From the NCBI GenBank assembly GCA_021828045.1, contig JAKATI010000003.1, positions 1-60,265 on the forward strand: 60,265 nt of DNA, given 5' to 3'. How positions within the stretch are numbered: the first letter of the stretch is position 1; each line of letters begins with the position of its first letter. The notes below the pieces were generated by a model, which saw nothing but the letters and a program-made list of their open reading frames with translations, had not been told where the DNA came from and did no database searches. This document shows positions 2,181 to 60,265 of the stretch, one piece after another. Both the position numbers and the translations under genes were made by a program. The stretch comes from Pseudomonadota bacterium (lineage in GTDB: Bacteria > Pseudomonadota > Gammaproteobacteria > JAKAQQ01).

Positions 2181-4604
<2,424 letters not shown>

Positions 4605-19122: not shown

Positions 19123-19558
19123 CGGTAGCTGTGACCTGGATGGTGCGCTGGACAAAGTCGGGGGTCTGCCCAAACGTGCCGTTCGAGGCATCCGCCTGGA
19201 TGACATAGACGTTAAAGGTGGTGCCGTGCTCCGTATGGGCCGTGGAAGAACAGCTGACGGTGACGGAAAAGCCGGATAGCCCGTTGGCCGTGAACGGAAG
19301 AGTCGTGGTCGCGGGGCAGCTGTGGTTTGTGACCGCTTCGTAGGCACCCCAGCCGGCACCGCTTTGGGCGGCTGCAAACGCACGTGCCTCGAGCAGGACA
19401 AGTGTGGGAGCGGTCTGCCCCGCCCCGGAAATCTCAATCACGAGGGCAGCCAGGGCGCCCAGAACGACGATGATAAAGAGAGCAATCAGGATCGAAAATC
19501 CCGACTCGGAAGGGGTCTTCCGTGACACAAATTGCGGGCATGGATGTTCAGGGTGCAT
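19103..19558 (-). CDS. mshP: MshP-like minor pilin-like protein
   Basis: 151 aa with a pilin-like hydrophobic N terminus after a Gly (SESG/FSILIALFIIVVLGALAAL), but no Glu5. It sits between mshO and mshQ. Confidence 0.5.
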   Translation of the reverse strand: MHPEHPCPQFVSRKTPSESGFSILIALFIIVVLGALAALVIEISGAGQTAPTLVLLEARAFAAAQSGAGWGAYEAVTNHSCPATTTLPFTANGLSGFSVTVSCSSTAHTEHGTTFNVYVIQADASNGTFGQTPDFVQRTIQVTATDAPQAF

Positions 19559-29592: not shown

Positions 29593-30646
29593 GAGTCGGG
29601 AGGGGTTTTTCGAGAAATCTGATTCTACGCTCGAGATAGAGGGTGAGTGTGGGCGGAAGCCCGCCCAGAGCGAGGGCCCGCTGGTCGGCTGTGAGAGCGG
29701 AGCGGTTCCGTCCCGACTGTTCCAGGGCAATCCCCCGGCCGGCCCAGGCCCAGGCAGCAAGGGGATGTTTTGCGATGACTTCATCATAAAGGTGCGCGGC
29801 GATGGGCCAGTGGCCGGTCAACTGGGCCAGGGCAGCGGCCAGTTTGAGGTAATGCAAATGGGCGATCGGGTGGGTTGGGGAATGGCGCCGGATTTCGTGC
29901 CAGGCGAGGGCCGTATTGCCGGTCCGGGCCAGCAGGTTGATTTGCGCGTCAAGGGCAGTGCGGCTGATCCCGGGGAGATGGATCCCTGTCAAAAGGAGCG
30001 CCTGGGCTGCCGGGAGGTCTCCGAGTCGTATGTCGAGCCCCGCCAAAGCCAGACGGATGGCAGAGTTCCGCGGTTCGAGGGACAGTGCCTTCCGGAAGCG
30101 GCGGATGGCATGGTGTTCATGCCCGTGATTCAGGTCGCGCCGGGCTTCGAGAAGGTCCAGTTGCATTGCCTCGGACGGTGTGGCGGGAGGGGCGGAATGG
30201 ATGTCCAGGGATTGGGCGATGGACACGGGCGGAGGAGGATGAAAAGCGGCCCGGGCTTGAGGTTTTGTTTGGGCAGACTGGGATAAGGGCCGCCGGGGGT
30301 GGCTTCCAATCGCAGGGGATTGTGGCAGGGGTTGGGCGATTGCGGCACTTGGGGGGGGGCGGCCGCCGAAAGCACGGGTTTGGTGGGCCTGGGTTCCGGC
30401 ACGGATCGTTGTGCCAGCGGGTCGGGGGAGGGGACGGGTTGAGTGGGTGTTTCCTCCCCAGGTCAGGAGAAACCAGCTCGTGCCGAGTGCAAGAAGGACA
30501 AAGAGGATACTGGAGAGAATTGCCGCAGGCCGGTGTGGTCGGATGTGAGTCTTGGATTCCGGAACGACCTGAATGCCAGAGAGTGCTCCCGGTGCCCGGG
30601 GTTCCCGTTTGGCCAGGTCCCGGAGAACGTCATTGATGAGACTCAT
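29573..30646 (-). CDS. mshN: MshN-like TPR protein
   Basis: 357 aa with the N terminus MSLINDVLRDLAKRE followed by a TM segment, a Pro/Ala-rich linker and a C-terminal TPR-like region. It sits between mshM and mshE. Confidence 0.6.
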   Translation of the reverse strand: MSLINDVLRDLAKREPRAPGALSGIQVVPESKTHIRPHRPAAILSSILFVLLALGTSWFLLTWGGNTHSTRPLPRPAGTTIRAGTQAHQTRAFGGRPPPSAAIAQPLPQSPAIGSHPRRPLSQSAQTKPQARAAFHPPPPVSIAQSLDIHSAPPATPSEAMQLDLLEARRDLNHGHEHHAIRRFRKALSLEPRNSAIRLALAGLDIRLGDLPAAQALLLTGIHLPGISRTALDAQINLLARTGNTALAWHEIRRHSPTHPIAHLHYLKLAAALAQLTGHWPIAAHLYDEVIAKHPLAAWAWAGRGIALEQSGRNRSALTADQRALALGGLPPTLTLYLERRIRFLEKPLPTHEPPTR

Positions 30647-31494
30647 GTCCGGCTCCAGATCCGGCTCGGCCAGGATCGTTGTGTCCGGAGGACTTCACTG
30701 TCTGCGGCAGCGCGGATGATATGGGACCTCTGGATCCGGGTACTTCCATCACCAAAGGCGGCGAGCAAGGCCTTGTGGGCCCCCAGGTTCACGAGACGGG
30801 GGACTCCCCGGCTAACACGGGCCAGCTCCCGCACCGCCCGGGGTGTGAAAAGACCGGGATCGCGTGAACCTGCGACTGACAGGCGGTGATGGACGTACCC
30901 TGCGACGACATCCGGAGCCATGGGTTCCAGTTTGTAGCTGAAGCTGATCCGCTGTGCGAGCTGCCGGAGGATCGGACGGGAAAGGCGGACATCAAGTTCA
31001 GGTTGCCCGAAAAGGATGATGTGGAGGAGCTTGGCCTTCTCGGTTTCCAGATTGGACCAGAGACGGACAGCCTCAAGGGCGGGAGAAGACAACTCCTGGG
31101 CTTCGTCGATCAGGACCACAACTCGCCCCCGATTGCGGGCCAGTTCGAGCAAGCGCCCCTGGATCGCTTCCGTGAGGAGACCGGCGCCCATGATCGGACC
31201 GAGCGGGATCCCCAGTTCTCGTGCCAGGGCACGCCGGATCTCGTTCGGCGTGAGATGGGGATTCGGCAGGTAGGCGGTTGTGAAGTGGTCCCGGAGCTGG
31301 TTGAGCAGAGTCCGGCAGAGCAGCGTTTTCCCGAGCCCGACCTCACCGGTGATCTTGAGGAATCCTTCGCCACTCTCAAGGGCCAGGAGAACGACGTTCA
31401 GGGCTTCCTGGTGACTGCCGAACGCGTAAAAAAAATCGGTGTCCGGCGTGAGATTGAACGGATATTCCCTGAACCCGAAGAAGTCGAGGTACAT
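30643..31494 (-). CDS. mshM: ExeA-like AAA ATPase, MshM
   Basis: 283 aa beginning YLDFFGFREYPFNLTPDTDFFY, with Walker A GEVGLGKT and Walker B VVVLIDEAQ. Confidence 0.85.
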   Translation of the reverse strand: MYLDFFGFREYPFNLTPDTDFFYAFGSHQEALNVVLLALESGEGFLKITGEVGLGKTLLCRTLLNQLRDHFTTAYLPNPHLTPNEIRRALARELGIPLGPIMGAGLLTEAIQGRLLELARNRGRVVVLIDEAQELSSPALEAVRLWSNLETEKAKLLHIILFGQPELDVRLSRPILRQLAQRISFSYKLEPMAPDVVAGYVHHRLSVAGSRDPGLFTPRAVRELARVSRGVPRLVNLGAHKALLAAFGDGSTRIQRSHIIRAAADSEVLRTQRSWPSRIWSRT

Positions 31495-31503
31495 ACTACG
31501 GGG

Positions 31504-33252
31504 CTAGTGGACGCCCCAGCCCCGACGAAACTGGCCTTGGCGCCCGAAAGCGCGGGCTTCGCGTCGGGCATAGTGTGACCAAGCCGTTCGATTGCCCACA
31601 ACGATCGGGCGCAGGAGGATGACCAGTTCTGTTTTTACCGTTTGCTGCAAACGCTGCTTGAAAAGGTTACCGAGAAGGGGAATCTGGCCGAGGATGGGAG
31701 TTTCGTAGTTTTCGTTCTGGATTTCATTTTTCATGAGGCCACCGATGACGATCACCTGGCCCGAGTGGGCTCGTACGACCGTATCGGATTCCCGAACCTG
31801 ACTGAAAGCCAGTGGCAGGGTGCTCGACTGGCCGGAGACTGTAAACGAGGTGATCTGGGAGGTGACCTTGCTCACGGTGGGGTGGATTTCAAGGATGACT
31901 GTGCCCCGGGAGGTGATTTCGGGTGTGACATCGAGTGAGATGCCCGAAAAAAACGGGGTCAGGTTGACGTTGTTGGCGGAACTCACGGCGGTTCCCACGA
32001 AGGTGTTGCTGTTCACTCCTGTGACAAAATACTGGTCGTTGCCGACCTTGATGACCGCCTGCTGGTTGTTGAGGGTGGCAACCCGCGGGCTTGAGAGGAC
32101 ATGGACTTGTCCTTGTTGCTGCAGCAATTCGATGAAACCGGTGAAGTCGCCCAGGTTGAGAGCCAAGGCGAAAGTCCCACCGAAGGCGGTGGTTGGGAAG
32201 CTCGAGAGGGGAGCCGTGTTGGGTGCCAGGGTCAGCGACTGGCCGGCCAGTGTGGAAGTGCCCTGGTTGAACAGGTTTTGCCCACCGATCTGTCCGCCCA
32301 GGATGGAATTCCCCGTCCCGGGCTGGCCAAGGGCGGCCCAGTTGATTCCGCTCTGGAAACCCTTGTTGAGAGTGACTTCGAGGATCTTGGCCTCAATCAC
32401 CACTTCCCGGTCCAGGCTGCCCTGGATCTGGTGGAGATAATCCGCGGTCAGATGGATTTCCGCGGGTGTGCCACGGACCAGAACGACTCCGGAGGTCGGG
32501 CTTACAATCACCTCATGACCGGGCGTTTGGGAGACGATGGACGAAAGGGCTTTCTGGATGTGTTTCCAGAACGCGGACTTGAATTTGGTCTCGATGCTGG
32601 TGCTGGCCTGTTGTCCGGACGGTAGATAAAGCTGCTCGTTCTGATTGTTCGCCATGTTTCCGTACATCCCTTCCCCGTACATGCCGCCATAGGCACCATA
32701 GCCCCCGTACCCATTGTTCTGGGGCACATTGGTCGTTTCCCCGGAGGTAATGAGTGTGCGGGTGACCCCCTTGCGGCTCACGTCCAGGTAGTTGACGTGA
32801 AAGATCCGTGTAACCAGTCCTTTCGGCAGGACGAGGTAACCGCTCGGGATGCGGTGATAGCGGAAGCCATACGTTGCCCGCACGATGGCGAACACTTCGG
32901 GGACTGTCACCCGCTTGAGCTCAAGGGTGATCCGTCCGGTCACCTTGGGTGCTACGACGACGTTGTAGGGGGTTCCCTTCACGAGTCCCAGGAAGAAGGC
33001 CCGTGCCGGTTCGTCGTGGACCGAAAGGTTGAAGCGTTCCTCGGTAACTCGTCCGACACCGGTCTTGACGGGCGGCAGGAAAGTCGCAGTCAGGCTGGTG
33101 GGAGGGGGCGCCGGATGGGACGGGATCACCGGGGTCACCCGGCCGGCTTGTCGCAGCAGGGATGCCGGGCTCGAATGGGGGCGGGTTGTAGCGCAACCGG
33201 TCAGGAAAGCTGCGCAGGCGAGGGCCGACAGCAGGCGGGAATGTCGATTCAT
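31504..33252 (-). CDS. mshL: Secretin (GspD/PilQ family) lipoprotein, MshL
   Basis: 582 aa with a lipobox (AAFLTGC) and a C-terminal secretin domain (VLSSPRVATLNNQQAVIKVG...IPLLGNLFK...ELVILLRP). Confidence 0.9.
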   Translation of the reverse strand: MNRHSRLLSALACAAFLTGCATTRPHSSPASLLRQAGRVTPVIPSHPAPPPTSLTATFLPPVKTGVGRVTEERFNLSVHDEPARAFFLGLVKGTPYNVVVAPKVTGRITLELKRVTVPEVFAIVRATYGFRYHRIPSGYLVLPKGLVTRIFHVNYLDVSRKGVTRTLITSGETTNVPQNNGYGGYGAYGGMYGEGMYGNMANNQNEQLYLPSGQQASTSIETKFKSAFWKHIQKALSSIVSQTPGHEVIVSPTSGVVLVRGTPAEIHLTADYLHQIQGSLDREVVIEAKILEVTLNKGFQSGINWAALGQPGTGNSILGGQIGGQNLFNQGTSTLAGQSLTLAPNTAPLSSFPTTAFGGTFALALNLGDFTGFIELLQQQGQVHVLSSPRVATLNNQQAVIKVGNDQYFVTGVNSNTFVGTAVSSANNVNLTPFFSGISLDVTPEITSRGTVILEIHPTVSKVTSQITSFTVSGQSSTLPLAFSQVRESDTVVRAHSGQVIVIGGLMKNEIQNENYETPILGQIPLLGNLFKQRLQQTVKTELVILLRPIVVGNRTAWSHYARREARAFGRQGQFRRGWGVH

Positions 33253-49485: not shown

Positions 49486-50109
49486 ATGGTGTCACGCCGA
49501 CAGCCTCCAAGCCGACAGCAGAGAACCCGGCACGGTTTGCGGGAACGCAAGCCAAAGGGCTTCCGCCCCTGGGGCTGGGTGAGCCTGGTTCTGTTCCTGA
49601 TCATCGTCGCACTCCTTGTCGTGCCCGTTATCCGGCATTCCCTCCGAACTGCGGAACGGCTTGAGCACCGGACGACCTTACCCAGAGTGGCCCGTGCGCA
49701 CCCCGAGCCCACTCCGGCGACCGTGACGCGAGCCGAAAAGACCTTTTCCTTTTATACGCAGCTCAAAAAGCGTTTCGAGATCGTTCTGCCGGAAGAAGAA
49801 CGCAGTGCTCGCACGGATCATGGGCGACATCCCATCGTCCATCCCGGGCGTTACCTGATCCAGGTTGGATCCTTTCGCCACTGGCAGAGAGCCAACCAGC
49901 TCAAGGCCAAGCTTGCCTTGTGGGGGATTGTGGCGCAGATCAATCCGGTCCGGATCAGCAACGGTGAACGCTGGGACCGTGTCCAGATCGGTCCCATCGA
50001 GCGCCTGAACCACCTCAATACCCTGAGGCGGCTCCTCTCCCGGCACCGCGTGACGATGCTCCTGATCCGTCTCAATCCGCCTGGCCGTGGTGCGGGCCCC
50101 CCTTCCTGA
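49486..50109 (+). CDS. SPOR-domain membrane protein (FtsN/DedD-like)
   Basis: 207 aa from the ATG at 49486; the tracked ORF from 49015 is out-of-frame overlap with argS. Has a basic N terminus, one TM segment (WVSLVLFLIIVALLVVPV) and a C-terminal SPOR fold (YLIQVGSFRHWQRANQLKAKLAL...). Confidence 0.75.
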   Translation: MVSRRQPPSRQQRTRHGLRERKPKGFRPWGWVSLVLFLIIVALLVVPVIRHSLRTAERLEHRTTLPRVARAHPEPTPATVTRAEKTFSFYTQLKKRFEIVLPEEERSARTDHGRHPIVHPGRYLIQVGSFRHWQRANQLKAKLALWGIVAQINPVRISNGERWDRVQIGPIERLNHLNTLRRLLSRHRVTMLLIRLNPPGRGAGPPS

Positions 50110-50459
50110 AACTCATATCCTCGGCGTTTCCTCACTCGGTTCCGGGACTTGAATGGCGTGCAGCCAGTCCCACCAATACTGGACAAACCCTTCCCCTTCT
50201 CGAGGCCCGCATGGAAGATTCGGGATTCTGCCAGCCCGGTTCTTGGTTGAAACCCTAGGGCTCGCAGTCATCCCGGCGCGGGCTCTTCCGATTATGGATC
50301 AGGGGGGGGCAGGCAGTCGATGTCGTGGGGCGTAACCTCGAAGCCTGCCAGGATCATTCAGGTCCCCTGCTTGAATTTTTCTCTGGCAGGAACCGGGTAC
50401 TCGCCAGACTTGGGGGGAAGAAGCGCCCCCAGGACAAGTCGAAAAAGCCCAGCAATATA

Positions 50460-50488
50460 TTGACAGGGGAAAACCTGCATCCTACAAT
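50460..50488 (+). promoter_or_regulatory. Near-consensus sigma70 promoter of the hyf-like operon
   Basis: TTGACA (50460-50465), a 17-nt spacer, then TACAAT (50483-50488), preceded by an A/T-rich stretch (agcaatatat). It lies about 90 nt upstream of the first gene. Confidence 0.6.
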
Positions 50489-50576
50489 GGGACGACGGTG
50501 ATGGAGTTCGCCGAAAAAACGCCATCAGGCTAATAACTCCTGCGTGAATCCAAGCATTTGAGGATGCCTTCGGGGC

Positions 50577-51533
50577 ATGCGTGGGGTCATGACAGGCGAC
50601 GCCGTCTTCCAGCAGGTTTGCCAGGTATTGGCCGTGCTGTGCCTGGCACCTCTTCTCCAAGGATTCATCGTGACCTGCCGCGAGAAAATCGCCCGCGGGA
50701 AGGGACCGTCAGTTCTTCAACCCTACCTGGATCTTTACAAGTTGTTCCACAAGGAACAGCTGGTTCCGGAAACCGCCTCTTTCGTCTTCTGGATTGCCCC
50801 AATCGTGGCTTTCACAGCCATGCTCACTGTCCCTCTCCTGATTCCGGTGCTCACCAACTATCCCTTGCCCCTTTCGGACATGGGCGACATTCTGGGGGGC
50901 GGGCTTATCCTGGCTCTGGCCGGCTTCTTCATCGGGCTCGCGGGCTTGGACTGTGGCCATCCGTACGGGGGGCTGGGCTCGAGTCGAGAAGTGATGCTTG
51001 GGATTCTCGCCGAGCCCACGCTGATCGTGGTGTTCATCGGCATCACCCTGCTTGACCGGTCCATGCTGCCCTTTGTCGTGAACCATCTGCTCGTGGCTGA
51101 GCCGTCTGTCTACTGGAGTCCAGGCCACCTCCTCCTGGTTGCCGCCTTTTTCATCCTGCTGACCGTTGAGACCGAGCACCTGCCCATTCATTCAGACACC
51201 CATCATGAGATCTACATGATTGGGGAAGCCCGCCTCCTCGAATATTCGGGTCCTCTCTTGGGGCTTCTCAAATGGTCCTCCTGGATGAAGCGGGCCATCC
51301 TCTACACCATCTTCGTCAATGTCCTGACCCTGCCTTGGGGTCTTTCGGTTCGGGGTTCGATCCCAGGGTTGCTTGTGGCGACTGGCATTCTGCTTGTGAA
51401 ATGGGCACTCGTTGCCCTGTTGCTCGTGATGATCGATTCCCTCCAGTCCCGGTTGCGCTTCTACCGCTACCAGGAGCCCCTGGCCCTCTCGTTCCTCCTT
51501 GCGATCCTGGCTGTGATCGCCCACCAGCTTTAG
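50577..51533 (+). CDS. HyfC/HycD-like (NuoH-like) membrane subunit
   Basis: 318 aa (an alternative ATG is at 50589). It is colinear with formate hydrogenlyase subunit 4: APLLQGFIVTCREKIARGKGPSVLQPYLDLYKLFHKE, followed by multiple TM helices. Confidence 0.85.
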   Translation: MRGVMTGDAVFQQVCQVLAVLCLAPLLQGFIVTCREKIARGKGPSVLQPYLDLYKLFHKEQLVPETASFVFWIAPIVAFTAMLTVPLLIPVLTNYPLPLSDMGDILGGGLILALAGFFIGLAGLDCGHPYGGLGSSREVMLGILAEPTLIVVFIGITLLDRSMLPFVVNHLLVAEPSVYWSPGHLLLVAAFFILLTVETEHLPIHSDTHHEIYMIGEARLLEYSGPLLGLLKWSSWMKRAILYTIFVNVLTLPWGLSVRGSIPGLLVATGILLVKWALVALLLVMIDSLQSRLRFYRYQEPLALSFLLAILAVIAHQL

Positions 51534-51534
51534 G

Positions 51535-52221
51535 ATGCCGATGCCAACCCCCTCCCTCACCAGCCTGACCCACGCGATCGTGGACCTCATCGCCATGTGT
51601 GCACTGCTTCTCTCCTTCGTGATGCTGGGTTCGCACTGGATCCGGAACCATATCCTTGCGTTCGCAGCCCAATCCTGGGTGCTGGCAGCGCTGTCCGCCG
51701 TCATCGGTTTTTCCGGACACTATCCAGCACTGCTGGTCATTGCAGTGCTGACCCTGCTCCTCCGCGGTCTGATCCTTCCCCATCTCCTGGTCCGTATCCT
51801 GGACCGGGCCCATCTCGACCGGGAGTTCGCCCCGGTGCTCCAGCCGGCCATGAGTGTCGTCATGGGTGCATTGTGCGTCCTTTTGGCCTACGGGGCGGCC
51901 CTCCGTCTGGGCCAGGCGGTGACTGGGCAGAGCCCCGTCGTCCGGATCGGGTTGACCAGTCTTCTCGCGGTTGTGCTAATCGGGTTCCTGATGCTGGTCC
52001 TGCGACGGGAAGCGGTGAGCCATCTCCTCGGGCTGCTCGTGATCGAAAATGGCATTTTCCTGGGGTCGCTGGTCCTCATGCCGGGACTCCCACTGCTCCT
52101 CGAGTTTGTGGTGTTGTTCGATCTCCTGCTTATCGTGGTTGCTCTCGGCATGTTCGTTCGCCACCTCCGGGCCGAAATCGGCTCGACCGACAGCCGGTCC
52201 CTGGACCGGCTCGTGGGATGA
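51535..52221 (+). CDS. HyfE-like (NuoK-related) membrane subunit
   Basis: 228 aa and polytopic. The size and position after the NuoH-like gene match hydrogenase-4 component E. It starts 1 nt after the upstream stop. Confidence 0.8.
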   Translation: MPMPTPSLTSLTHAIVDLIAMCALLLSFVMLGSHWIRNHILAFAAQSWVLAALSAVIGFSGHYPALLVIAVLTLLLRGLILPHLLVRILDRAHLDREFAPVLQPAMSVVMGALCVLLAYGAALRLGQAVTGQSPVVRIGLTSLLAVVLIGFLMLVLRREAVSHLLGLLVIENGIFLGSLVLMPGLPLLLEFVVLFDLLLIVVALGMFVRHLRAEIGSTDSRSLDRLVG

Positions 52222-52225
52222 GCCC

Positions 52226-53683
52226 ATGATTTGGGCCCCACTCGGGATCCTGTTCGCGGTCACGGCCCTGGCCTCGGCCCTCTGCTGGACCGTGCGCCTG
52301 TCCCGCATTGCCGAGATCGTCAACCTTGCCGCAGCCGCGATCGATTGTCTTCTCGTGGGCTGGCTGCTGGCGGTGACGCCGTCAGGGGGCGTGCGGGGTT
52401 TGGGTGACTACTTCCGTCTCGGTCCGTTGGGCCTGTGGGTGATGTTGTGCACCGCGCTCGTCTATTTTCTGGCCTCGCTGCACGCGATCGGATACATGCG
52501 TCGGATGCGTGGGGAGAAGGAGCGGCTGAACCGCTTCTACGGGATGTTCGCGATCTTTGCGCTGACTCTCTTTTTGGCGCCAATCGAGAATAACCCGGGG
52601 CTCTTCTGGATCTCGATCGAGCTCACCACCATTGCCAGTGCTTTCCTGGTTGCATTCCAGCGGTCCGCTGAGACCATCGAGGCTGCTTGGAAGTATGTCG
52701 TTATCGCATCGGCCGGCCTTTCACTGGCACTGCTCGGGACGATTCTTTTCTACTGGGCAGGCATCTTTACGATGGGTCCCTCCTATAACATGACCTGGAG
52801 CCGCTTCGCTGCCGTCGCTCCCCTTGCCAATCCAGGCCTGGTCTTTTTCGCCTTCCTGCTCATACTGGCCGGCTATGGAACCAAGGTCGGCCTTGTGCCC
52901 ATGCATACCTGGCTCCCGGACGCACACAGCGAGGGCCCAGCCCCGGTCTCGGCGATGCTGTCGGGGGCGCTCCTGAACTGCGCGATGCTCGGCATTGTGC
53001 GTTTTCTCGCAATCCTGAAGAGTACGCCTGAACACGCGATGGCCCAAACCGTCCTTGTCGTGATAGGTGCCTTGAGCCTACTCGTCGCGGCCCTGTTCAT
53101 CGTCCGCCAGCGGCTGGTCAAACGCCTGGCCGCCTATTCGAGCATTGAGCACATGGGAATCATGGCCATGGGGTTCGGGTTCGGCGGGGCCTTGGGCGTG
53201 ATAGGCGCGCTTTACCAGATGCTCAACCACTCGGTGACGAAATCGGCGGTCTTTTTTGGGGCCGGGACCACGATGCATGCGTACCAGAGCAGGCGAATCG
53301 CGGGCATCCGGCGTGTGCTGGATGCCTTCCCATTTGCAGGACTCCTCTGGCTTGTGTCGGCTCTCGCCATTACAGGAGCCCCACCCTTCGGAATCTTCTG
53401 GGGCGAGATCGTCCTGCTCCAAGGCGGCATGGCGAGCGAAAACCGCTGGGCCGTGGTTTGGACGGTCGTCCTCCTGGTCGTGGTCTTCATTGGTTTCTTG
53501 GGCCACTTCCGGAGAATGTATTTCGGCCAGCCACCGACTCGGCCGCCCGAGAGCGCGTTTCATTGGACCGAATTGGTTGCGCTCGCGCTGGCCGTGGCAG
53601 CCGCCCTGGGGCTCGGCCTCTGGTGGCCCTCTTCCGTTTGGGCCTATCTCCGCGCGATCGCGCACCATCTGGGATCCGCCTGA
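52226..53683 (+). CDS. HyfF/HyfD-like (NuoN/M-type antiporter-like) membrane subunit
   Basis: 485 aa from the ATG at 52226; the tracked start at 52049 runs through hyfE out of frame. Has the Mrp/NuoM-type core (LVPMHTWLPDAHSEGPAPVSAMLSG). Confidence 0.85.
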   Translation: MIWAPLGILFAVTALASALCWTVRLSRIAEIVNLAAAAIDCLLVGWLLAVTPSGGVRGLGDYFRLGPLGLWVMLCTALVYFLASLHAIGYMRRMRGEKERLNRFYGMFAIFALTLFLAPIENNPGLFWISIELTTIASAFLVAFQRSAETIEAAWKYVVIASAGLSLALLGTILFYWAGIFTMGPSYNMTWSRFAAVAPLANPGLVFFAFLLILAGYGTKVGLVPMHTWLPDAHSEGPAPVSAMLSGALLNCAMLGIVRFLAILKSTPEHAMAQTVLVVIGALSLLVAALFIVRQRLVKRLAAYSSIEHMGIMAMGFGFGGALGVIGALYQMLNHSVTKSAVFFGAGTTMHAYQSRRIAGIRRVLDAFPFAGLLWLVSALAITGAPPFGIFWGEIVLLQGGMASENRWAVVWTVVLLVVVFIGFLGHFRRMYFGQPPTRPPESAFHWTELVALALAVAAALGLGLWWPSSVWAYLRAIAHHLGSA

Positions 53684-55191
53684 TGCGGCCCTGCACGAGC
53701 CAAGTCATCGGGGCCAGGGAGCTTCAGAAGGTGCTCGGCGAGCTTCTGCCCGCCGCCACCCGTTCGGACCCACACCGCCGGCTCCGCATGGCCTACGCGC
53801 GCAAGGCGGGTGAAACTGATCTCGAAGTCCTCTACTACCTGAGCCTGGGGAAAGGTTGCCCCGATCTCCTCTTGCGCGTTACCCCCGGTCAGCATGCCCT
53901 GCCGAGCCTGGCGAATCAATTCCCTGCGCTCTCGTGGTACGAGCGCGAAATGCATGACCTCTTCGGCATCGAATTTGCCGGACACCCCGAACTGCAACCG
54001 CTCATCCTTCACGAGGGAGTGACCACATCTCGGCCGCCCCTGATCGGGCAGGTAGGGGCCCCGATCCATTACCGCACATCCCCCCCCACGGTCCCGACGA
54101 TGAACGCGACCGAGATCCAATGCCTCCCGTTCGGTCCCGTTCGTGCGGATATCGTCGAGTCGGCCCAGTTTCTCTTTTACTACATCGGCGAGGGGATTCT
54201 CCACTTTCACCAACGGCTCTTCTACAAGCATCGCGGCATGGAACAGCGTTTCGAAGGCGCCTCACCCATGACGGGGGTCATCCTGGCCGAAAGGGTGTCC
54301 GCCACCGATACGGTGGCGCATGCCCTGGCATTCTGTCAGGCCTGCGAAATGGCGTTGGGTCTCTTGCCCCCTCCCCGTGCGCTCTGCATCAGGGCCATCC
54401 TCGCGGAACTAGAGCGTCTGGTGAACCATCTCCATTATTTTGCGGAACTGGCACGGATGACGACCCTTCGCGTAGCGGCCGCCCAAGGATCCTGGCTCGA
54501 AGAGCAGGTTCGGCAGATCAACGGGGCCTTGACCGGAAGTCGTTTTCTGCGCGGCCTCTTGGGAGTGGGGGGGCTTCGGCATGACCTCGAACTTTCCGGT
54601 CTGGCCGACCGTCTGACCACCCTCGAGTCCGGGGTTTTGGATTTTCTCGGCAAGCTGGAGGATACCCGGAGTTATCTCGACCGGCTGATTGGTACCGGCC
54701 GGCTCTCAACTGATGTGGCCATGGACCAGGGGGCAACCGGCCCAGTCGAGCGAGCAAGTGCGCTTGACCGGGACCTCCGGCGAGACCGACCCTACGGCTC
54801 TTATCGAACGCTTCGGTTTACGGTTCCCCAGGAGTCTTCGGGCGATGCCTTGGCCCGGGCCCGGGTTCGCCGCGCCGAAGTGACCGAGTCCCTTGCCCTG
54901 ATTCGCGAGTCGTTGGCGCGTCTCGAGTCGGGCCCGGTCTCCACGGTCCGGCCGGATGAAGCACCGGATCCTGCGGGAGAAGGTTTGGGGGCGGTCGAGG
55001 GTACCCGGGGCGGGCTTTACTACGCGGTCCATTTCGATCCAGACCGGAAGCGTTTGCTGCGCGTCAAGATCAAGGAACCCTCATTTTCGAACTGGCGTGT
55101 TTTCCCGTTCACCGTGATGGATACCAATCTCATGGACTACGCCATCAACGAGGCCAGTTTCGGTCTCTCGATCGCTGGCGCCGACCGTTAG
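53683..55191 (+). CDS. HycE/HyfG-like NuoC-NuoD fusion subunit lacking all four NiFe cysteine ligands
   Basis: 502 aa from the ATG at 53683 (TGATG overlap). Has a NuoC-like N-terminal region (SWYEREMHDLFGIEFAGHP) and a NuoD/large-subunit core. The L1 motif position reads ERVSATDTVAH instead of RxCGxCxxxH. The C terminus reads FGLSIAGADR instead of D-P-C-x-x-C-x-D-R. Confidence 0.85.
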   Translation: MRPCTSQVIGARELQKVLGELLPAATRSDPHRRLRMAYARKAGETDLEVLYYLSLGKGCPDLLLRVTPGQHALPSLANQFPALSWYEREMHDLFGIEFAGHPELQPLILHEGVTTSRPPLIGQVGAPIHYRTSPPTVPTMNATEIQCLPFGPVRADIVESAQFLFYYIGEGILHFHQRLFYKHRGMEQRFEGASPMTGVILAERVSATDTVAHALAFCQACEMALGLLPPPRALCIRAILAELERLVNHLHYFAELARMTTLRVAAAQGSWLEEQVRQINGALTGSRFLRGLLGVGGLRHDLELSGLADRLTTLESGVLDFLGKLEDTRSYLDRLIGTGRLSTDVAMDQGATGPVERASALDRDLRRDRPYGSYRTLRFTVPQESSGDALARARVRRAEVTESLALIRESLARLESGPVSTVRPDEAPDPAGEGLGAVEGTRGGLYYAVHFDPDRKRLLRVKIKEPSFSNWRVFPFTVMDTNLMDYAINEASFGLSIAGADR

Positions 55192-55201
55192 GGGGAATAC
55201 G

Positions 55202-56005
55202 ATGACCAACTGGGCTTGGTTTGGATTGCGTCGGGGGAGACTGACCACCGGCTGGCCGGAGGAGACTGGCCCGCATGGCCAGGAAGGTGTCCTTGGCATG
55301 CCGCAGCTCCACCCCGAGCGCTGCGCACCGGCGTGCAGGGACTGCATTTCGGTCTGTCCGTCCACCGCGATCACCAGAGCACCAGGAGAACCGGTGATGC
55401 TCGACTATGGACGTTGTGTGGTCTGTCAGCGCTGCGTTGAGGTATGCCCGACCGGGGCCATCGAAAAAACCACTGATTGGGCCTTTGGTGTCCGCACGCG
55501 GGGGGTGCTCCATGCGGGTGGTGGGAGGACGGGTTCCGGGAATGCCGGGTCTCCCCCATCCTCCCCCATACCCCGTAGATTTCGGCGGAGCCTGCATATC
55601 CGCCATGTCGATTCCGGATCCTGCAATGGCTGTGAATCCGAGCTCGAGGCACTCCTCAATCCCTTCTACAACCTCCACCGCTTGGGCATTTTCTTCACCG
55701 CCTCTCCCCGTTCCGCCGATTTATTGCTCGTGACGGGCCCCGTCACGATGGCCATGAAGGAACCACTCCTCGAAACCTATCGGGCGATGCCTGAACCCCG
55801 GTTTGTCATGGCAACGGGAACCTGCGCAACTGGTGGCGGGATTGCCGGTGGTGGATATAGCTGTCACCAGGGACTGGAGGGGGTTCTTCCAGTTGACCTC
55901 TGGCTACCGGGTTGCCCCCCCAACCCCGCAGCCATCATGGACGCTCTCTTGATCCTCTTGGGAAGAAGACCCGAACGAGCTTCCCTGCCGGGGAGTGCCC
56001 GATGA
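55202..56005 (+). CDS. Fusion of a 2x[4Fe-4S] ferredoxin (HycF/NuoI-like) with a NuoB/HycG-like small subunit
   Basis: 267 aa. The N-terminal part has CAPACRDCISVCP and CVVCQRCVEVCP. The C-terminal part has the four N2-type Cys (DSGSCNGCESE, GTCATGGG, PGCPP). Confidence 0.85.
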   Translation: MTNWAWFGLRRGRLTTGWPEETGPHGQEGVLGMPQLHPERCAPACRDCISVCPSTAITRAPGEPVMLDYGRCVVCQRCVEVCPTGAIEKTTDWAFGVRTRGVLHAGGGRTGSGNAGSPPSSPIPRRFRRSLHIRHVDSGSCNGCESELEALLNPFYNLHRLGIFFTASPRSADLLLVTGPVTMAMKEPLLETYRAMPEPRFVMATGTCATGGGIAGGGYSCHQGLEGVLPVDLWLPGCPPNPAAIMDALLILLGRRPERASLPGSAR

Positions 56006-57987
56006 ATCCACTCGAGGGTTTCCTCACCGCTTCCCTTCTGTGGATCGGTGCCCTGTTCGCGGATGCTCTCGGGCAGCCACGCTGGGCCCGTGGGCTCCTG
56101 TTTCTGGGGATCCTGATGGCTACGGCAGCAACCATCGAGGCCTTGCCTGGCAGCTCGGGGACAGGAGTCGTCGAGACCTTGGGCAGACTGCCTCTTGATT
56201 GGCGAATGGATGCAATGGCGCTCTGGCTTGCTCTACCGGCTTGGCTGCCCGCCGGCTTCGCTGTCTTGCTCGGTCATCGCGGGGGACGGAGAGGCTGGTT
56301 TTCCGGTTTTTCCCTGTGCCTGCTCGGAGCGCTAGGGGTTCTCGGCTTCCAGGATGGTCCGGCGTTTCTGGTGGCATGGGAAGTGCTGGGTTTTGGGGCT
56401 GCGATGATGTTGCTTTCAGAACGTAGTGATAGCGAAGGCGGTCGTGCCACCTTCTTCATGTTGGCTCTCCTTGAAAGCGGAGCCCTGGCCCTGCTCCTCG
56501 CCATCCTCATGCTGGGTCCGGGATGGCGCTTTTCCGGCTATGTCACAGCTTGGGCTGGCTGGGGCGGGGTTGCCGGTTTTCTTCTGGCACTCCTCTGGCT
56601 TGCTGGTTGCGGAGCAAAACTGGGACTCCTGCCCTACTACGAATGGTATCCGGATGCCTATGGCGTGGGCTCGGGCGCAAGCGGGGCACTGTTCTCGGGC
56701 CTCCTCCTCAACGTTGCCTACTTTGTCCTGAGCCGGGCTTTGGTCCAGTGGCTCGGAGTGCCCCCGTGGCTCAGCGACCTTGGGATCGTGGTTCTGGCCG
56801 CGGGTATCCTGACGGCGGTCCTGGCGGGCCTTTATGCTTTCCAGCAGAACGACTGGTTGCGTCTGCTGGCCTTCTCCTCGGCTGAAAACGCCGGTATCGC
56901 GGTCGCGGCTCTCGGGGCAGCCCTCATCTTCCGTGGTGCGGGTCATAACCACCTGGCCGCACTAGCCTGGATCGTGGGTCTGGTTCAGCTCATGGGGCAC
57001 GCGCTGGCCAAGGGAACTCTCTTCTTCACGGCCCAGGCAGTGGCTGGGGACGGTACCGGATCGACACCCCTCCGGCCGGAAGGCTTACTCCACCGTGCGC
57101 CTGGAACGGTTGGAGTAGGCGCGCTTTGGGCCGTGCTCAGTCTCGCTGCGTTGCCTCCAACGGCCGGGTTCGTGAGTGAGTGGTATCTCTTCCAGTGCCT
57201 GTTTCACGATTTTGTTCTGGCCACGGCCGTCACCCGGATCGCACTTGCCCTGGCAGGCGCAGGACTCGCGCTCACAGCCGCGATTGCGTTCGCCACTTTC
57301 GTCAAACTGTTCGGCGTGGGATTGCTCGGCAAACCCCGTGCCGCTCCCCGGGAGCCGGTTCCACCCGGATTCCGGATTGCGATCCTGGTCTGTGGTCTTT
57401 CGGTTCCCGCTTTTGCCGTGAGTCTGGTCGGGTGGCTGCCCTCGCTCGGCCAGATTGCCCGTCCGATCTTTGGATTTGCTCCTCGCCTCGTGCAGGGTTG
57501 GCTGCTGGTCCCGCTGAGCCCTGGATTTGCCTTCATCTCCCCAGTCCTCTTGGTCCTTGTTTGGCCGCTTCTTGCACTGGTTCCCCTCTCTCTTCTCCTG
57601 GTGCGCATCCGTCGTTTCAAGGTCCGCAGGACACACCTCTGGTGCGGCGGGGATCCGCTGGCAGCCCAATCTGGCGCCACGACGGCTTTCGCCTTTTCGA
57701 ACGCGCTGCGTGTCTTTTACAGCTTCGTTTACCGACCTCGAAATATGGTCCAGCGGACCTTCGGCGGACAACCCTATTTTGTGAAGGAACTCCGTTTTGA
57801 CTACAGCCATACCCCAGTCTTCGGGCAGCTCCTGTTCAAGCCGCTCTCCAAGGCCGTGCGTTCCCTGGCCCACCAGCTGCGTTTTCTGCAGAATGGGCAG
57901 ATGAGCGCCTATCTGGCCTATCTTGGGTTTGTCCTCTTCCTCATACTTATTTTTCTGATGGTCGGAAGCCCGATCGGATTCCGCTAG
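56002..57987 (+). CDS. HyfB-like (NuoL-type antiporter-like) membrane subunit
   Basis: 661 aa from the ATG at 56002 (ATGA overlap with the upstream gene). It is polytopic with a NuoL/Mrp-type core (KLGLLPYYEWYPDAYGVGSGASGALFSG). Confidence 0.85.
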   Translation: MNPLEGFLTASLLWIGALFADALGQPRWARGLLFLGILMATAATIEALPGSSGTGVVETLGRLPLDWRMDAMALWLALPAWLPAGFAVLLGHRGGRRGWFSGFSLCLLGALGVLGFQDGPAFLVAWEVLGFGAAMMLLSERSDSEGGRATFFMLALLESGALALLLAILMLGPGWRFSGYVTAWAGWGGVAGFLLALLWLAGCGAKLGLLPYYEWYPDAYGVGSGASGALFSGLLLNVAYFVLSRALVQWLGVPPWLSDLGIVVLAAGILTAVLAGLYAFQQNDWLRLLAFSSAENAGIAVAALGAALIFRGAGHNHLAALAWIVGLVQLMGHALAKGTLFFTAQAVAGDGTGSTPLRPEGLLHRAPGTVGVGALWAVLSLAALPPTAGFVSEWYLFQCLFHDFVLATAVTRIALALAGAGLALTAAIAFATFVKLFGVGLLGKPRAAPREPVPPGFRIAILVCGLSVPAFAVSLVGWLPSLGQIARPIFGFAPRLVQGWLLVPLSPGFAFISPVLLVLVWPLLALVPLSLLLVRIRRFKVRRTHLWCGGDPLAAQSGATTAFAFSNALRVFYSFVYRPRNMVQRTFGGQPYFVKELRFDYSHTPVFGQLLFKPLSKAVRSLAHQLRFLQNGQMSAYLAYLGFVLFLILIFLMVGSPIGFR

Positions 57988-58905
57988 GGAAGCTGACAAC
58001 ATACGTTGCAGCCACAACAGAAAATCGCACCGCAACACGTCAAGAAGCCTGGCCCCGGATCGCATTTTGATCTACAGCAACTACTACCGGCAAGCACGAT
58101 TGCATCCTGATTTGCTTCTGCCGCGAGCGTGAATAGCGATTTTGTGGGAGAAGGGGTTGAGGAGAGGACGCCCGCAGAAGGGGGCTTCCCCTCTCCCTTC
58201 TTGGAGTTCAAACACGGGTCCGGGACTGGAATTTTTCCGCCAAAGAAGCGGAGCAACTGGGTCCTCGGCTCTCGACTGGCCTTGACCAATAGCGCCAGCT
58301 GTCCAGCAAGGGTCCTGACCGTCATCTCAGCCTGGTGCCCACTCAGAATCGCGATTTTGGGATTGTCGCGGCTGCCACCTTTGTCCCACTTTCCTTGAAA
58401 TCTGGATCAAAATCCACACCGCACGCTGGTCCTCGCGCGAGGTATAGCCGTAAGATCATATTGCAAGCGAACCGGGAAATGCGCCGGTTGCCTGACGGTC
58501 AGGGTCACCGGGTGTCGGACCATTGCAATTTGAAATGAGGCCGGGATGATCGAATAACCGCCGATCGAAAGATGAAGATGAACCCTGTAGTAACAGTGGT
58601 TGAGACAGTGACCAAGACTTGCGGTGGCCCAGCTGGGATTTGCCGCACCCCCAATCACCAGAAATGCCATTAATAACTCTGACATAAATCTTTCATATGT
58701 AGTCTCCCTCTTGGCTTCTTGAAGCATCTGCCTCAACGCTATCCAGATGCTATCCACCGTTACCCAACCCAGTCAAGGAGGGCAGAAACAGCTTGCAGGG
58801 TGATCCATACAACGCAGGGGGACACATGGGAAACCGAAATGGAGCCATCTTCGACTCTCAACGCTACTTTCCCACCCCTGTGATGCAAATGGCAGTTTTT
58901 ACTGA

Positions 58906-58947
58906 TGGGCCCAGCAGGACTCGAACCTGCGACCAATCGATTATGAG
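58906..58947 (-). pseudogene. 3' fragment of a tRNA with anticodon CAU (Met/Ile2 type), running from the anticodon loop to the discriminator base
   Basis: The minus strand reads CTCATAA-TCGAT-TGGTC-GCAGG-TTCGAGT-CCTGC-TGGGCCC-A, a perfect T arm and 3' acceptor strand. It is colinear with the 3' half of the E. coli ileX-type tRNA as I recall it. No matching 5' acceptor strand (GGGCCCA), D arm or 5' anticodon stem lies upstream, and no CCA is encoded. Confidence 0.6.
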
Positions 58948-59378
58948 GGGCGCCCAGATGCTTTTCGCTGAGAGCATTTTTGGTGATTTGCCAAGAGATT
59001 TCGTTGTTTGGGGGTGCACGCAATTTGCCATCATCCCTGCATTTTGCCTTCGCACTATGGCAAGGGAATGGCGTAAGTGGATCGACTACTCGTTCACAGT
59101 CTCACCTCACGGCATCCGCTCGAAGTGCTTGGAAAGCATACTAGGATCTGTTGAACTTGCAGGACCCGTCAACCAACTATGCCACTTGACTTATGCAACG
59201 GCAATTGCTTCGAGGTACTGTGACTTCATCCTCTCAAAGTTCGGAGTCTCCGGGAAACCCGGGGTGGTTCGTATATTATAGAAATGCATAGAATGGTATC
59301 TGATGCTCTCACGATTAAACTCGCTCCTGTCAAAAAGGAAGCTTTCCGTTTTTTCTCTTTTGGTTATTTGGAGCACAC

Positions 59379-59543
59379 ATGAAGACTATTACTCGTGTCA
59401 ACCAACTACATGGAAATGTGAAAACCCTCCACAAAGATTTTTTTTCCAAAAATAAGAGGCGTGCTGGATTTGCGCATGACCGTATCAGGAAAGGAAAATG
59501 CTTTGTCGTTAAGGAAACTCTGATCAATCTTGGTTTGATGTGA
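59379..59543 (+). CDS. Hypothetical small basic protein (54 aa) in AT-rich DNA
   Basis: Too short for the ORF track. An ATG is preceded by GGAG at 5-nt spacing, and the ORF reads MKTITRVNQLHGNVKTLHKDFFSKNKRRAGFAHDRIRKGKCFVVKETLINLGLM. I recognise no family. Confidence 0.15.
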   Translation: MKTITRVNQLHGNVKTLHKDFFSKNKRRAGFAHDRIRKGKCFVVKETLINLGLM

Positions 59544-59600
59544 TCCACTTGAAATCAGGTGCCATGTTGGCCCTGCCGGGTCGTTTGATTCCTGTGTTTC

Positions 59601-60265
59601 GGCTCCCGAACCTCTTGTTTCTGACAAGAGGGCCGATGGCAGGCGGGCTACGCCCCTTGCAGCCGCAACAACCTTCTCCTCACCATGAAGAGATTGGCGA
59701 GCGCACAGGTCACGAACAGCCGATGGGCATTCTTGCGAAGCCCGCGATAGCGGGTCTTCATGAAGCCGAAGAGCCGCTGGATCACCAGAAACGGGGGTTC
59801 GCCCGTGGCGCGCACTCTCGATTTGGGGGTGTTCTTCGCTTTCTGTTCCGCGGTGAGCGGATGGTTGCGGGTCGCCTTCTCGTGCGTCCAGTCTTGGGCC
59901 TGCGGCGCCTGGGCGCGAATCACCTCGGTCTGGCCGGCATAGGCGCTATCGCCTCACACCCGGGTCTCGGCTCCGTGCAGCAGATCGGGCAGGATCTGCG
60001 AGTCGTGCACGTTCGCCGCAGTGGCGACCACCGAGTGAATGAGCTTCACCTTGCTGTCGATCCCCAGATGGGCCTTCCTCCCGAAAGACCACGGATTCCC
60101 TTTCTTCGTCTGGTGCATCTCGGGATCGCGCGACTGACTCTGGTTCTTCGTCGAAGATGGCGCGTTGAGAATCGTGGCATCGACGATGGTGCCCCGACCA
60201 ACTGTCAGCCCCAAGGCCGCGAGATGGGCGTTGACCTTCACAAAGATCTGTTCGCCGAGGCTCGC
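59601..60265 (-). mobile_element. IS5-family insertion sequence (partial; left boundary approximate)
   Basis: Base composition switches sharply from AT-rich to GC-rich near 59590-59600. An 8-bp-stem palindrome CCTCTTGT-ttctg-ACAAGAGG (59611-59631) lies just past the transposase stop. The terminal inverted repeat cannot be defined without the other end. Confidence 0.55.
59648..60265 (-). pseudogene. IS5-family DDE transposase, interrupted by an in-frame TGA and truncated by the window edge
   Basis: The two tracked ORFs (59954-60241 and 59648-59923) are in the same frame, and the frame is open to nt 60265. Joined they read ...[17 protein letters not shown]...[66 protein letters not shown]...KSRVRATGEPPFLVIQRLFGFMKTRYRGLRKNAHRLFVTCALANLFM, a typical IS5/InsH-like layout. 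The stop lies at 59954-59956. Confidence 0.85.

Follow-up and report, generated by a model that had tools for sequence, protein, structure and literature searches.

A fluoride riboswitch precedes an operon for an Ehr-type membrane complex whose large subunit lacks the NiFe ligands

We have analysed a 60,265-nucleotide (nt) stretch of gammaproteobacterial DNA (contig JAKATI010000003.1 of assembly GCA_021828045.1; hereafter the window) in which a fluoride riboswitch stands directly before six genes for a membrane complex resembling group 4 [NiFe] hydrogenases. The genes lie on the + strand at 50577-57987 and are tightly packed, with minimal or overlapping junctions. The initial annotation, made from the sequence of the window alone, had described a six-gene group-4-hydrogenase-like operon with these limits; the listing of open reading frames (ORFs) and the Pfam and NCBIfam scans, by which families were assigned, agree with it. 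The leader and the genes, with lengths in amino acids (aa), are:

50460-50488, + strand: predicted sigma-70-type promoter (TTGACA at 50460-50465, 17-nt spacer, TACAAT at 50483-50488)
50488-50549, + strand: fluoride riboswitch aptamer, core GGUGAUGGAGUUCGCC...CGCC-AUCA-GGCU-AAUAACUCCU
50537-50587, + strand: candidate expression platform, in which ACUCCUGCGUG (50537-50547) would pair with CAUGCGUGGGGU (50576-50587, with the ATG at 50577 inside)
50577-51533, + strand: G1, NuoH/HyfC/HycD-like membrane subunit, 318 aa; Pfam NADHdh 1.2e-29; alternative ATG at 50589
51535-52221, + strand: G2, HyfE-like small membrane subunit, 228 aa; full-length alignment to the NCBIfam hydrogenase 4 membrane subunit (5.1e-14), below the cut-off
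52226-53683, + strand: G3, HyfF/NuoN-M-like antiporter-like subunit, 485 aa; Proton_antipo_M 1.8e-51, HyfF 2.5e-107
53683-55191, + strand: G4, fused NuoC-NuoD or HycE-like 'large subunit', 502 aa; Complex1_30kDa, Complex1_49kDa and a weak NiFeSe_Hases match
55202-56005, + strand: G5, fused NuoI-like (two [4Fe-4S]) and NuoB/HycG-like ([4Fe-4S]) subunit, 267 aa; Fer4 families and Oxidored_q6 1.1e-28
56002-57987, + strand: G6, HyfB/NuoL-like antiporter-like subunit, 661 aa; HyfB 2e-82, Proton_antipo_M 2e-23

Gene callers place the start of G2 at 51541, giving 226 aa, and the Pfam scan yielded no match for this product. The start of G6 at 56002 follows from the translation (an ATGA overlap with the stop codon of G5), and public gene calls agree. 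HyfB, HyfC, HyfE and HyfF were the top-scoring models for the membrane subunits. The NCBIfam matches of all products fall far under the curated cut-offs, so that no product qualifies as the equivalog of any named Hyf, Hyc or Nuo subunit.

Because the operon is directly followed by crcB and DUF190 genes in Thiomonas and by a DUF190 gene in Acidiferrobacter, the window was scanned against Rfam. The only match at the gathering threshold in the 60 kb was the fluoride riboswitch RF01734 (the crcB motif) at 50488-50549 in the 5′ leader of the operon, which covers the full length of the model (positions 1-64 of 64; 47.6 bits against a gathering threshold of 34; E-value 4.2e-10). This element is not in the initial annotation, and it would supply the operon with a defined inducer and a physiological context. 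On the same strand, the ATG of G1 follows the 3′ end of the aptamer after 28 nt. Orthologous leaders align without any change in the aptamer core, whose pseudoknot strands in the window are GGAGU (50504-50508) and ACUCC (50537-50541). The promoter matches the consensus at 11 of 12 positions and is the top site in 50100-58600; TTGAC-like −35 and TAnAAT-like −10 elements align in several orthologous leaders, and the transcript would start a few bases 5′ of the riboswitch core.

In the minimum-free-energy fold of the leader the 3′ pseudoknot strand of the aptamer, with its flank, pairs with the start region, and GGAG-like boxes complementary to ACUCC precede the start codon in orthologous leaders. 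A translational ON switch, in which fluoride would lock ACUCC in the pseudoknot and free the start region, is plausible. An intrinsic terminator was considered as the expression platform and rejected, as no terminator-like site was found between the aptamer and the ATG. The ∼350 nt that separate a SPOR-domain gene from the promoter (50110-50460) are apparently non-coding and contain no Rfam match at the gathering threshold.

The large subunit G4 has E. coli HycE as its top match in the PDB (7z0s_E, 5e-42), with ERVSATDTVAH aligned to DRVCGICGFAH. We aligned G4 by MAFFT with E. coli HycE, HyfG and NuoCD (reference sequences from the K-12 record) and with its relatives. The four Cys ligands of the NiFe site are replaced by Ser206 (Cys1), Asp209 (Cys2), Ser496 (Cys3) and Gly499 (Cys4), whose codons begin at 54298, 54307, 55168 and 55177. 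These are exactly the residues and codons that the initial annotation had singled out. In G4, GPLHVTSDEPGHF has given way to GPVRADIVESAQF. The EPGH motif is missing from G4 and from its family, and the protein ends in ...ADR, as NuoD does, with no cleavable extension. The canonical quinone ligands of complex I, whose quinone-site signature was described earlier as absent, are indeed missing, H224 and Y273 of E. coli NuoCD being aligned with Val158 and Ala207 of G4.

The same picture holds in an alignment of 121 homologues with at least 52% identity. The first ligand column contains Ser in 121 of 121 members, the second Asp or Gly, the third Thr or Ser and the fourth Gly in 119 of 121; the columns of NuoCD H224 and Y273 contain V/L/F and G/A in all 121. 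Arg154 is invariant in the family, at a position where HycE and NuoCD both have His, and 136 of the 502 positions of G4 are at least 97% conserved. The AlphaFold2 model of G4 (predicted local distance difference test score, pLDDT, 85.3; predicted template-modelling score 0.89) is less confident in the NuoC-NuoD linker and in the last five residues (pLDDT <50); the closest fold is that of HycE (7z0s_E, template-modelling score 0.88/0.83), followed by E. coli NuoCD (∼0.82). The alignments show a rebuilt NiFe/quinone pocket, with Ser/Asp/Ser/Gly in place of the ligands and an invariant Arg154; such a protein would be neither a [NiFe] hydrogenase nor a canonical quinone reductase. With the NiFe and quinone ligands absent, annotation of the operon as hydrogenase-4 or formate hydrogenlyase (FHL) is unjustified, as had already been argued; for the cluster of Acidithiobacillus ferrooxidans the HydDB classification says the same (PMC7735108).

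Accessory genes of a hydrogenase are missing as well, as first reported from the sequence. A tblastn search of the 60-kb window with E. coli HypA/B/C/D, HycI/H/A/B, HyfA/J and FocB matched only the ferredoxin domain within G5, and no formate dehydrogenase gene is present in the window, where each ORF of at least 560 aa has another identity. No NuoE/F/G-like gene was found in the operon, in its flanks in the window or in the flanks of related loci.

The residues expected of the remaining machinery are kept. In G5 the eight ferredoxin-type Cys (Cx3-5Cx2Cx3CP and CxxCxxCxxxCP) and the four NuoB-type Cys (CxxC...C...CP, the CxxC form being typical of group 4 small subunits) are present in 15 of 15 orthologues, in line with the earlier statement that the NuoB-type Cys are retained; these 12 Fe-S Cys have persisted across ∼50% sequence divergence. 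G3 keeps the Glu/Asp of transmembrane helix 5 (TM5), the Lys of TM7 and the Glu of TM12, and has Asn for the Lys of TM8, the same as E. coli HyfF. G6 likewise keeps the TM5 Glu, TM7 Lys and TM12 Glu, with Asn/Ser in TM8. G1 has kept the charged residues that NuoH shares with HycD and HyfC (D63, K66, K70, R148, E157, E228, K274, R291 and R293 in E. coli NuoH), and the membrane acidic residues E171, E190 and D196 of G2 are shared with E. coli HyfE. Because the Fe-S Cys and the residues of the antiporter-like, NuoH-like and HyfE-like subunits are kept, the electron-transfer chain (three predicted [4Fe-4S] clusters) and the ion-translocating machinery look intact, the change appearing to be confined to the terminal catalytic pocket.

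A sequencing error, the alternative that had been raised for the missing ligands, does not explain them. Gene calls on 16 contigs, which come from several assemblies, give an identical G4 protein, one DNA run from mine drainage covers the whole operon at ∼28x with no differences, and the replacements are kept in the 121 homologues; the ligand replacements are therefore real. The operon sequence is present in metagenome runs from mine drainage, tailings and sediment. The ratios of nonsynonymous to synonymous substitution rates (dN/dS) for all six genes against two orthologous loci are 0.05-0.23 (0.05 for G1 against locus L002), indicating purifying selection, and this selection is as strong on the peripheral subunits as on the membrane subunits.

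A scan of genome collections gave 12 loci with the gene order H-E-F-CD-IB-B. The nearest are from metagenome-assembled genomes (MAGs) with 86-87% identity; three Acidithiobacillus species have ∼50% identity, and two MAGs bear the labels Ectothiorhodospiraceae and Eoetvoesiella, respectively. Contigs labelled Thiomonas, Acidiferrobacter, Ferrimicrobium and Acidobacteriaceae, and some others, were added through protein look-ups. Among these orthologous loci, which we call c1, all 15 with available upstream DNA have the fluoride riboswitch directly 5′ of the first gene, which makes 16 of 16 with the window included. The labels of the c1 loci with the riboswitch include Acidithiobacillus, Thiomonas, Acidiferrobacter, Ectothiorhodospiraceae, Ferrimicrobium and Acidobacteriaceae.

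A second, paralogous cluster (c2), first seen in Acidithiobacillus and one MAG, is ∼35% identical, has the same gene order and is also devoid of the Cys ligands (A/S..S/A and S..E, in the motifs GPVWGDFNESGLW and GLSVAENDR). It is found in Acidithiobacillus, Chromatiaceae, Salinisphaera, Nitrococcus, Rhodanobacteraceae and others. In Acidithiobacillus c2 stands in tandem with the first cluster, mostly with a fluoride riboswitch of its own. The riboswitch precedes c2 in eight of 11 loci examined, and two of the three exceptions sit 3′ of a c1-crcB-DUF190 array on the same strand. The c2 clusters are located as follows:

L008, 15416-21485: c2 cluster
L010, from 15409 onward: c2 cluster
L011, 15331-20755: c2 cluster
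L003, 12623-19546, − strand: c2 cluster
L048-L069: c2 clusters

None of the large subunits in the 27 related loci examined, whether riboswitch-linked or paralogous, has a Cys at a NiFe ligand position. The riboswitch is absent from all six more distant Ehr ('energy-converting hydrogenase related') or hydrogenase loci that were compared (Ehr loci of Nitrospirota and Methanomassiliicoccales that keep EPGHF, a Peptococcaceae enzyme with the four Cys and an Acidobacteriota locus). A neighbour-joining analysis with 200 bootstraps, based on 28 full-length large subunits and leaving aside the distant homologues L071-L122, recovers c1 and c2 with 100% support each and their union with 98.5%, separate from the distant outgroups and from HycE/HyfG. 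The riboswitch-linked complexes form a single clade, to which neither the other Ehr complexes nor true hydrogenases belong.

The Ehr class itself is not new. Ehr complexes were defined by Marreiros et al. in 2013 as relatives of group 4 hydrogenases without the NiFe ligands and with no known function (PMC6349859, PMC10284858, PMC4378227), and have been reported in Sulfobacillus (PMC4378227), comammox Nitrospira (PMC10284858), Margulisbacteria and relatives (PMC6349859) and Methylacidiphilum (PMC6688271). The assignment of the window operon to this class, already made in the initial annotation, agrees with its composition of six Hyf/Hyc/Nuo-family subunits, with the loss of the L1 and L2 Cys motifs from the large subunit and with its antiporter-like subunits. 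The operon is orthologous to the Acidithiobacillus clusters (∼50% identity, same gene order); in A. ferrooxidans the catalytic subunit of the hyfBCEFGI cluster was classed as a non-hydrogenase by HydDB (PMC7735108). Two features set the clade apart from the Ehr complexes of Nitrospirota and Methanomassiliicoccales: c1 and its sister c2 have lost EPGH, which those complexes keep, and the window clade is preceded by a fluoride riboswitch, which those complexes lack. The Ehr descriptions found in the literature searched make no mention of fluoride.

E. coli hydrogenase 3/FHL (HycBCDEFG, 7z0s) and hydrogenase 4 (HyfABCDEFGHI) resemble the window complex in the sequence (5e-42) and fold (0.88) of G4 and in the CxxC-type motif of the small subunit. 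They differ from it in having the NiFe ligands and the C-terminal processing extension; in the window a single fused protein combines the equivalents of HycF/HyfH and HycG/HyfI, the 60 kb have no HycB/HyfA, FdhF, HycI or Hyp genes, and the gene order is H-E-F-CD-IB-B as opposed to B-C-D-E-F-G-H-I in E. coli. With complex I the window complex shares the modular architecture, the fold (NuoCD ∼0.82), the Glu/Lys residues of the antiporters and the charged residues of NuoH; unlike complex I, it has no NuoEFG module, the H224/Y273 ligands of NuoCD are replaced and the small subunit has CxxC instead of the tandem CC of NuoB. MBS/Mbx (Pyrococcus, 6u8y) and Mbh (6cfw) gave significant matches to G4, of ∼6e-23 to 7e-24 (6u8y_L 6.4e-23), much weaker than that of HycE. 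MBS and Mbh are group-4-related complexes with Mrp-like modules, and MBS is a precedent for a complex derived from a hydrogenase with an altered catalytic site. These complexes, which we compared by overall sequence match, have 13-14 subunits against six in the window, and the six-gene composition argues against membership in MBS/Mbx.

Genes of the fluoride response recur beside the operon in relatives. The crcB (PF02537) and DUF190 (PF02641) genes adjoin it, 5′ or 3′, in L006, L008, L010, L011, L044, L046, L056 and L129; the pair is not beside the operon in the closest relatives L001-L005. Additional enolase and MutS-domain genes are found near the operon in L044, L128 and L129, with two MutS_V-domain genes in Thiomonas. 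The enolase and MutS neighbours match the classic fluoride regulon of the literature, where the genes associated with fluoride riboswitches include crcB, enolase, genes for MutS-domain proteins and 'formate hydrogen lyase' (PMC2864571, PMC11139923). A search for partners, made by all-against-all BLAST clustering of the ORFs that flank 15 c1 and 12 c2 loci, returned as recurrent neighbours only crcB, DUF190, enolase and MutS-domain genes, a gene for a small repeat protein and a gene resembling cyclopropane-fatty-acyl-phospholipid synthase (CFA synthase). The positions of these neighbours are:

L044, 14471-15168: crcB-DUF190 pair
L006, L008, L010 and L011, ∼14250-15170: crcB-DUF190 pair
L046, 10180-10500: crcB-DUF190 pair
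L056, 14412-15125: crcB-DUF190 pair
L129, 1920-2634: crcB-DUF190 pair
L044, 15247-19686: enolase/MutS-domain neighbours
L128, 70-1822: enolase/MutS-domain neighbours
L129, 10408-11685: enolase/MutS-domain neighbours
L048, 12277-13590: CFA-synthase-like gene, judged by sequence
L049, 12370-13623: CFA-synthase-like gene, judged by sequence
L052, 8256-9512: CFA-synthase-like gene, judged by sequence
L044, 20151-21521: CFA-synthase-like gene, Pfam CMAS

In L129 and L012 the crcB-DUF190 pair has a fluoride riboswitch of its own, and DUF190, a small uncharacterised protein, seems to travel with CrcB. The enolase gene of L128 also has its own fluoride riboswitch (1745-1822, − strand). The CFA-synthase-like gene, which occurs 3′ of c2 in several Acidithiobacillus loci and near the Thiomonas operon, may be part of the same membrane response to acid or fluoride. 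On the Ferrimicrobium-labelled contig L127, a c-di-GMP-II-GAG riboswitch (RF03169, 46.9 bits, 8794-8878) lies just 3′ of the operon and precedes a gene for a 244-aa protein without a Pfam match. A genomic-island copy of the cluster in Acidithiobacillus caldus adjoins a beta-carbonic anhydrase gene (PMC3826726). A carbon-concentrating role was considered and dropped, as neither a carbonic anhydrase nor a carboxysome gene recurs in the examined loci.

Elsewhere in the window, gyrB (2205-4604, Pfam) comes after two ORFs whose sizes resemble those of dnaN and recF (51-1106 and 1107-2174), which suggests that the window starts near the chromosomal replication origin. The GC skew is positive to ∼46 kb and then about zero or negative. 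Downstream of the operon the GC content falls to 0.53 (58000-60265), against ∼0.62 in the operon, and − strand ORF fragments at 59648-59923 and 59954-60241 correspond to a DDE_Tnp_1/DUF772 transposase called in sister contigs. Among otherwise identical contigs this downstream DNA varies, with AAA_15/HNH genes in L040 and L041 and a transposase in L042 and L043; it looks like a strain-variable insertion site. The − strand encodes a 1111-aa DUF6701 protein (16102-19437) and, nearby at 27856-33252, genes that include those for an MshE-type secretion ATPase (27856-29787) and for a secretin (31504-33252); the region resembles a cluster for an MSHA-type pilus or type II secretion, with a large uncharacterised protein.

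We read the promoter, the fluoride riboswitch and the six genes as one operon for a fluoride-induced, Fe-S-containing, ion-translocating complex of the Ehr type that would support homeostasis of pH and proton-motive force, a reading that we favour with slightly better than even confidence. A rise of cytoplasmic fluoride would turn expression on, probably because the start region would no longer be paired with the 3′ aptamer strand. Hydrogen fluoride (HF) would diffuse into the cell at acid pH and dissociate there, and the released protons, together with the fluoride export cycle of CrcB, would constitute a continuous proton load. A soluble donor of low potential, most probably ferredoxin, which Ech and Mbh use, would deliver electrons to the NuoI-like domain, and these would pass to an acceptor at the rebuilt pocket; the energy would serve to expel protons or to exchange cations. 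This outward movement would offset the proton load of HF and so keep cytoplasmic pH and proton-motive force under fluoride stress. The accumulation of HF as a weak acid lowers pH and proton-motive force (PMC11139923; PMC2864571), and the genes found most often with fluoride riboswitches include those for Na+/H+ antiporters and 'formate hydrogen lyase' (PMC11139923; PMC2864571). The proposal fits the view of fluoride stress as a problem of pH and proton-motive force with antiporters as common targets (PMC11139923), and it fits the acid-mine habitat. The homologues come from acidophiles.

Several observations weigh against this proposal. The c2 cluster is also found in organisms not known as acidophiles (Salinisphaera, Nitrococcus), so an acid-specific rationale is not the whole story. 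The 60 kb of the window have no crcB or DUF190 gene. The operon and the flanks of the 15 c1 and 12 c2 loci contain no conserved gene for an electron donor or acceptor, and the Fe-S clusters could be structural only. The helix of the candidate expression platform is no better than that of shuffled sequence (z = −1.05), and for this reason the translational switch is something we infer. When metatranscriptomes from mine drainage and Acidithiobacillus RNA-seq data were compared with the operon and with the Acidithiobacillus ferruginosus locus, only stray contig fragments of relatives matched. Finally, the Hyf-like subunits of A. ferrooxidans were undetected in proteomes, the cultures having been grown on H2 without fluoride (PMC7735108).

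If the Fe-S clusters and the peripheral arm were structural or regulatory relics, the complex could be a redox-independent cation/proton antiporter of the Mrp type. The antiporter-like and the NuoH/HyfE channel residues are kept, no donor or acceptor partner was found and the pocket has lost both known chemistries, all of which would suit such an antiporter. It would not account for the 12 Fe-S Cys that have been kept across ∼50% divergence, nor for peripheral subunits selected as strongly as the membrane subunits, and the 136 near-invariant positions of G4 argue for a working peripheral arm; we consider this explanation unlikely.

Direct handling of fluoride, by analogy, is a further possibility: the pocket (Arg154, Ser206, Asp/Gly209, Ser/Thr496) might bind F− or HF, with the antiporter-like module driving removal. 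Hydration of CO2 driven by antiporter-like subunits, in the cyanobacterial NDH-1MS/CupA and DAB complexes, provides the analogy. The strict coupling to the riboswitch (16/16 and 8/11 loci), the frequent adjacency of crcB and the pocket residues, invariant in the family and unlike those of hydrogenases and complex I, speak for it. An anion site is without support, however, three conserved Fe-S clusters would be superfluous to such a mechanism, and CrcB and CLC-F suffice as exporters in other organisms (PMC11139923). We rate direct handling as distinctly doubtful.

The complex might also run in reverse, with the pH gradient of an acidophile driving reduction of ferredoxin or another low-potential carrier, or act as a fluoride-insensitive stand-in for an inhibited respiratory enzyme. 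Valdes et al. (2008), who described the A. ferrooxidans cluster as a group 4 hydrogenase, proposed such an uphill reduction of ferredoxin or a like carrier (PMC2621215), and second copies of enzymes that fluoride inhibits, enolase among them, are indeed part of the riboswitch regulon (PMC11139923). Import of protons during fluoride stress would, on the other hand, worsen the acidification of the cytoplasm; an operon with neither NuoEFG nor a dehydrogenase module cannot replace complex I, and no respiratory enzyme of this family is known as a target of fluoride. Both variants, taken together, strike us as a poor prospect.

A genuine H2-evolving group 4 [NiFe] hydrogenase or FHL is what the public names ('formate hydrogenlyase subunit 5', 'Ni,Fe-hydrogenase III large subunit') imply; G4 is closest in sequence and fold to E. 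coli HycE, and reviews name formate hydrogen lyase as a riboswitch target. Against this stand the replacement of the four NiFe Cys in 121 of 121 family members, the loss of EPGH and of any C-terminal extension for an endopeptidase, a window without hyp, hycI, hycB and formate dehydrogenase genes, NCBIfam hydrogenase models that all score below their cut-offs and a homologue in A. ferrooxidans that is a non-hydrogenase by HydDB (PMC7735108), so that we regard it as very improbable. A functionless, decaying hydrogenase remnant with a coincidental riboswitch, which the lost active site and the subunits undetected in A. ferrooxidans proteomes (PMC7735108) might suggest, is barely credible in view of six intact reading frames with overlapping stop and start codons, dN/dS of 0.05-0.23, gene order and riboswitch kept across loci of different phylum labels and a riboswitch E-value of 4e-10. 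The readings as a true hydrogenase and as a remnant are essentially excluded.

A bolder reading would have c1 and c2 together as a dedicated fluoride-defence machine and not a general respiratory enzyme. In its strong form the pocket would bind F− or HF and the complex would couple active removal of fluoride and its protons to Fe-S redox chemistry or to the proton gradient; in a weaker form the complex would be a fluoride-induced primary proton pump. We put this forward as a speculation that is unlikely to hold. If it did, the strong form would mean new chemistry for the complex I superfamily, and the weaker form would for the first time assign a physiological function to an Ehr complex and show that the 'FHL' branch of the fluoride regulon had been misinterpreted from 2010 on.

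A Cys-less Ehr class was already known, also in acidophiles; what is new here is its synthesis with the fluoride riboswitch. In the fluoride literature the riboswitch targets are read as real FHL, and a 2024 review treats them as a shift towards fermentation (PMC11139923); the large subunits examined here, in contrast, have no NiFe Cys. A link between the Ehr class and the riboswitch 'FHL' targets was not found in the literature searched, which did not extend to Baker 2012 and the main fluoride-exporter review, so that it may have been noticed before. At least the riboswitch 'FHL' targets that belong to clades c1 and c2 are, as predicted from their ligand positions, non-hydrogenase Ehr complexes. 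This would correct a functional annotation in fluoride biology, that of the 'formate hydrogen lyase' targets listed since 2010-2012 and read as a fermentation shift, and one branch of the Ehr class would gain a defined inducer and a testable physiological role. The finding is of relevance to bioleaching, where fluoride from gangue minerals inhibits acidophiles.

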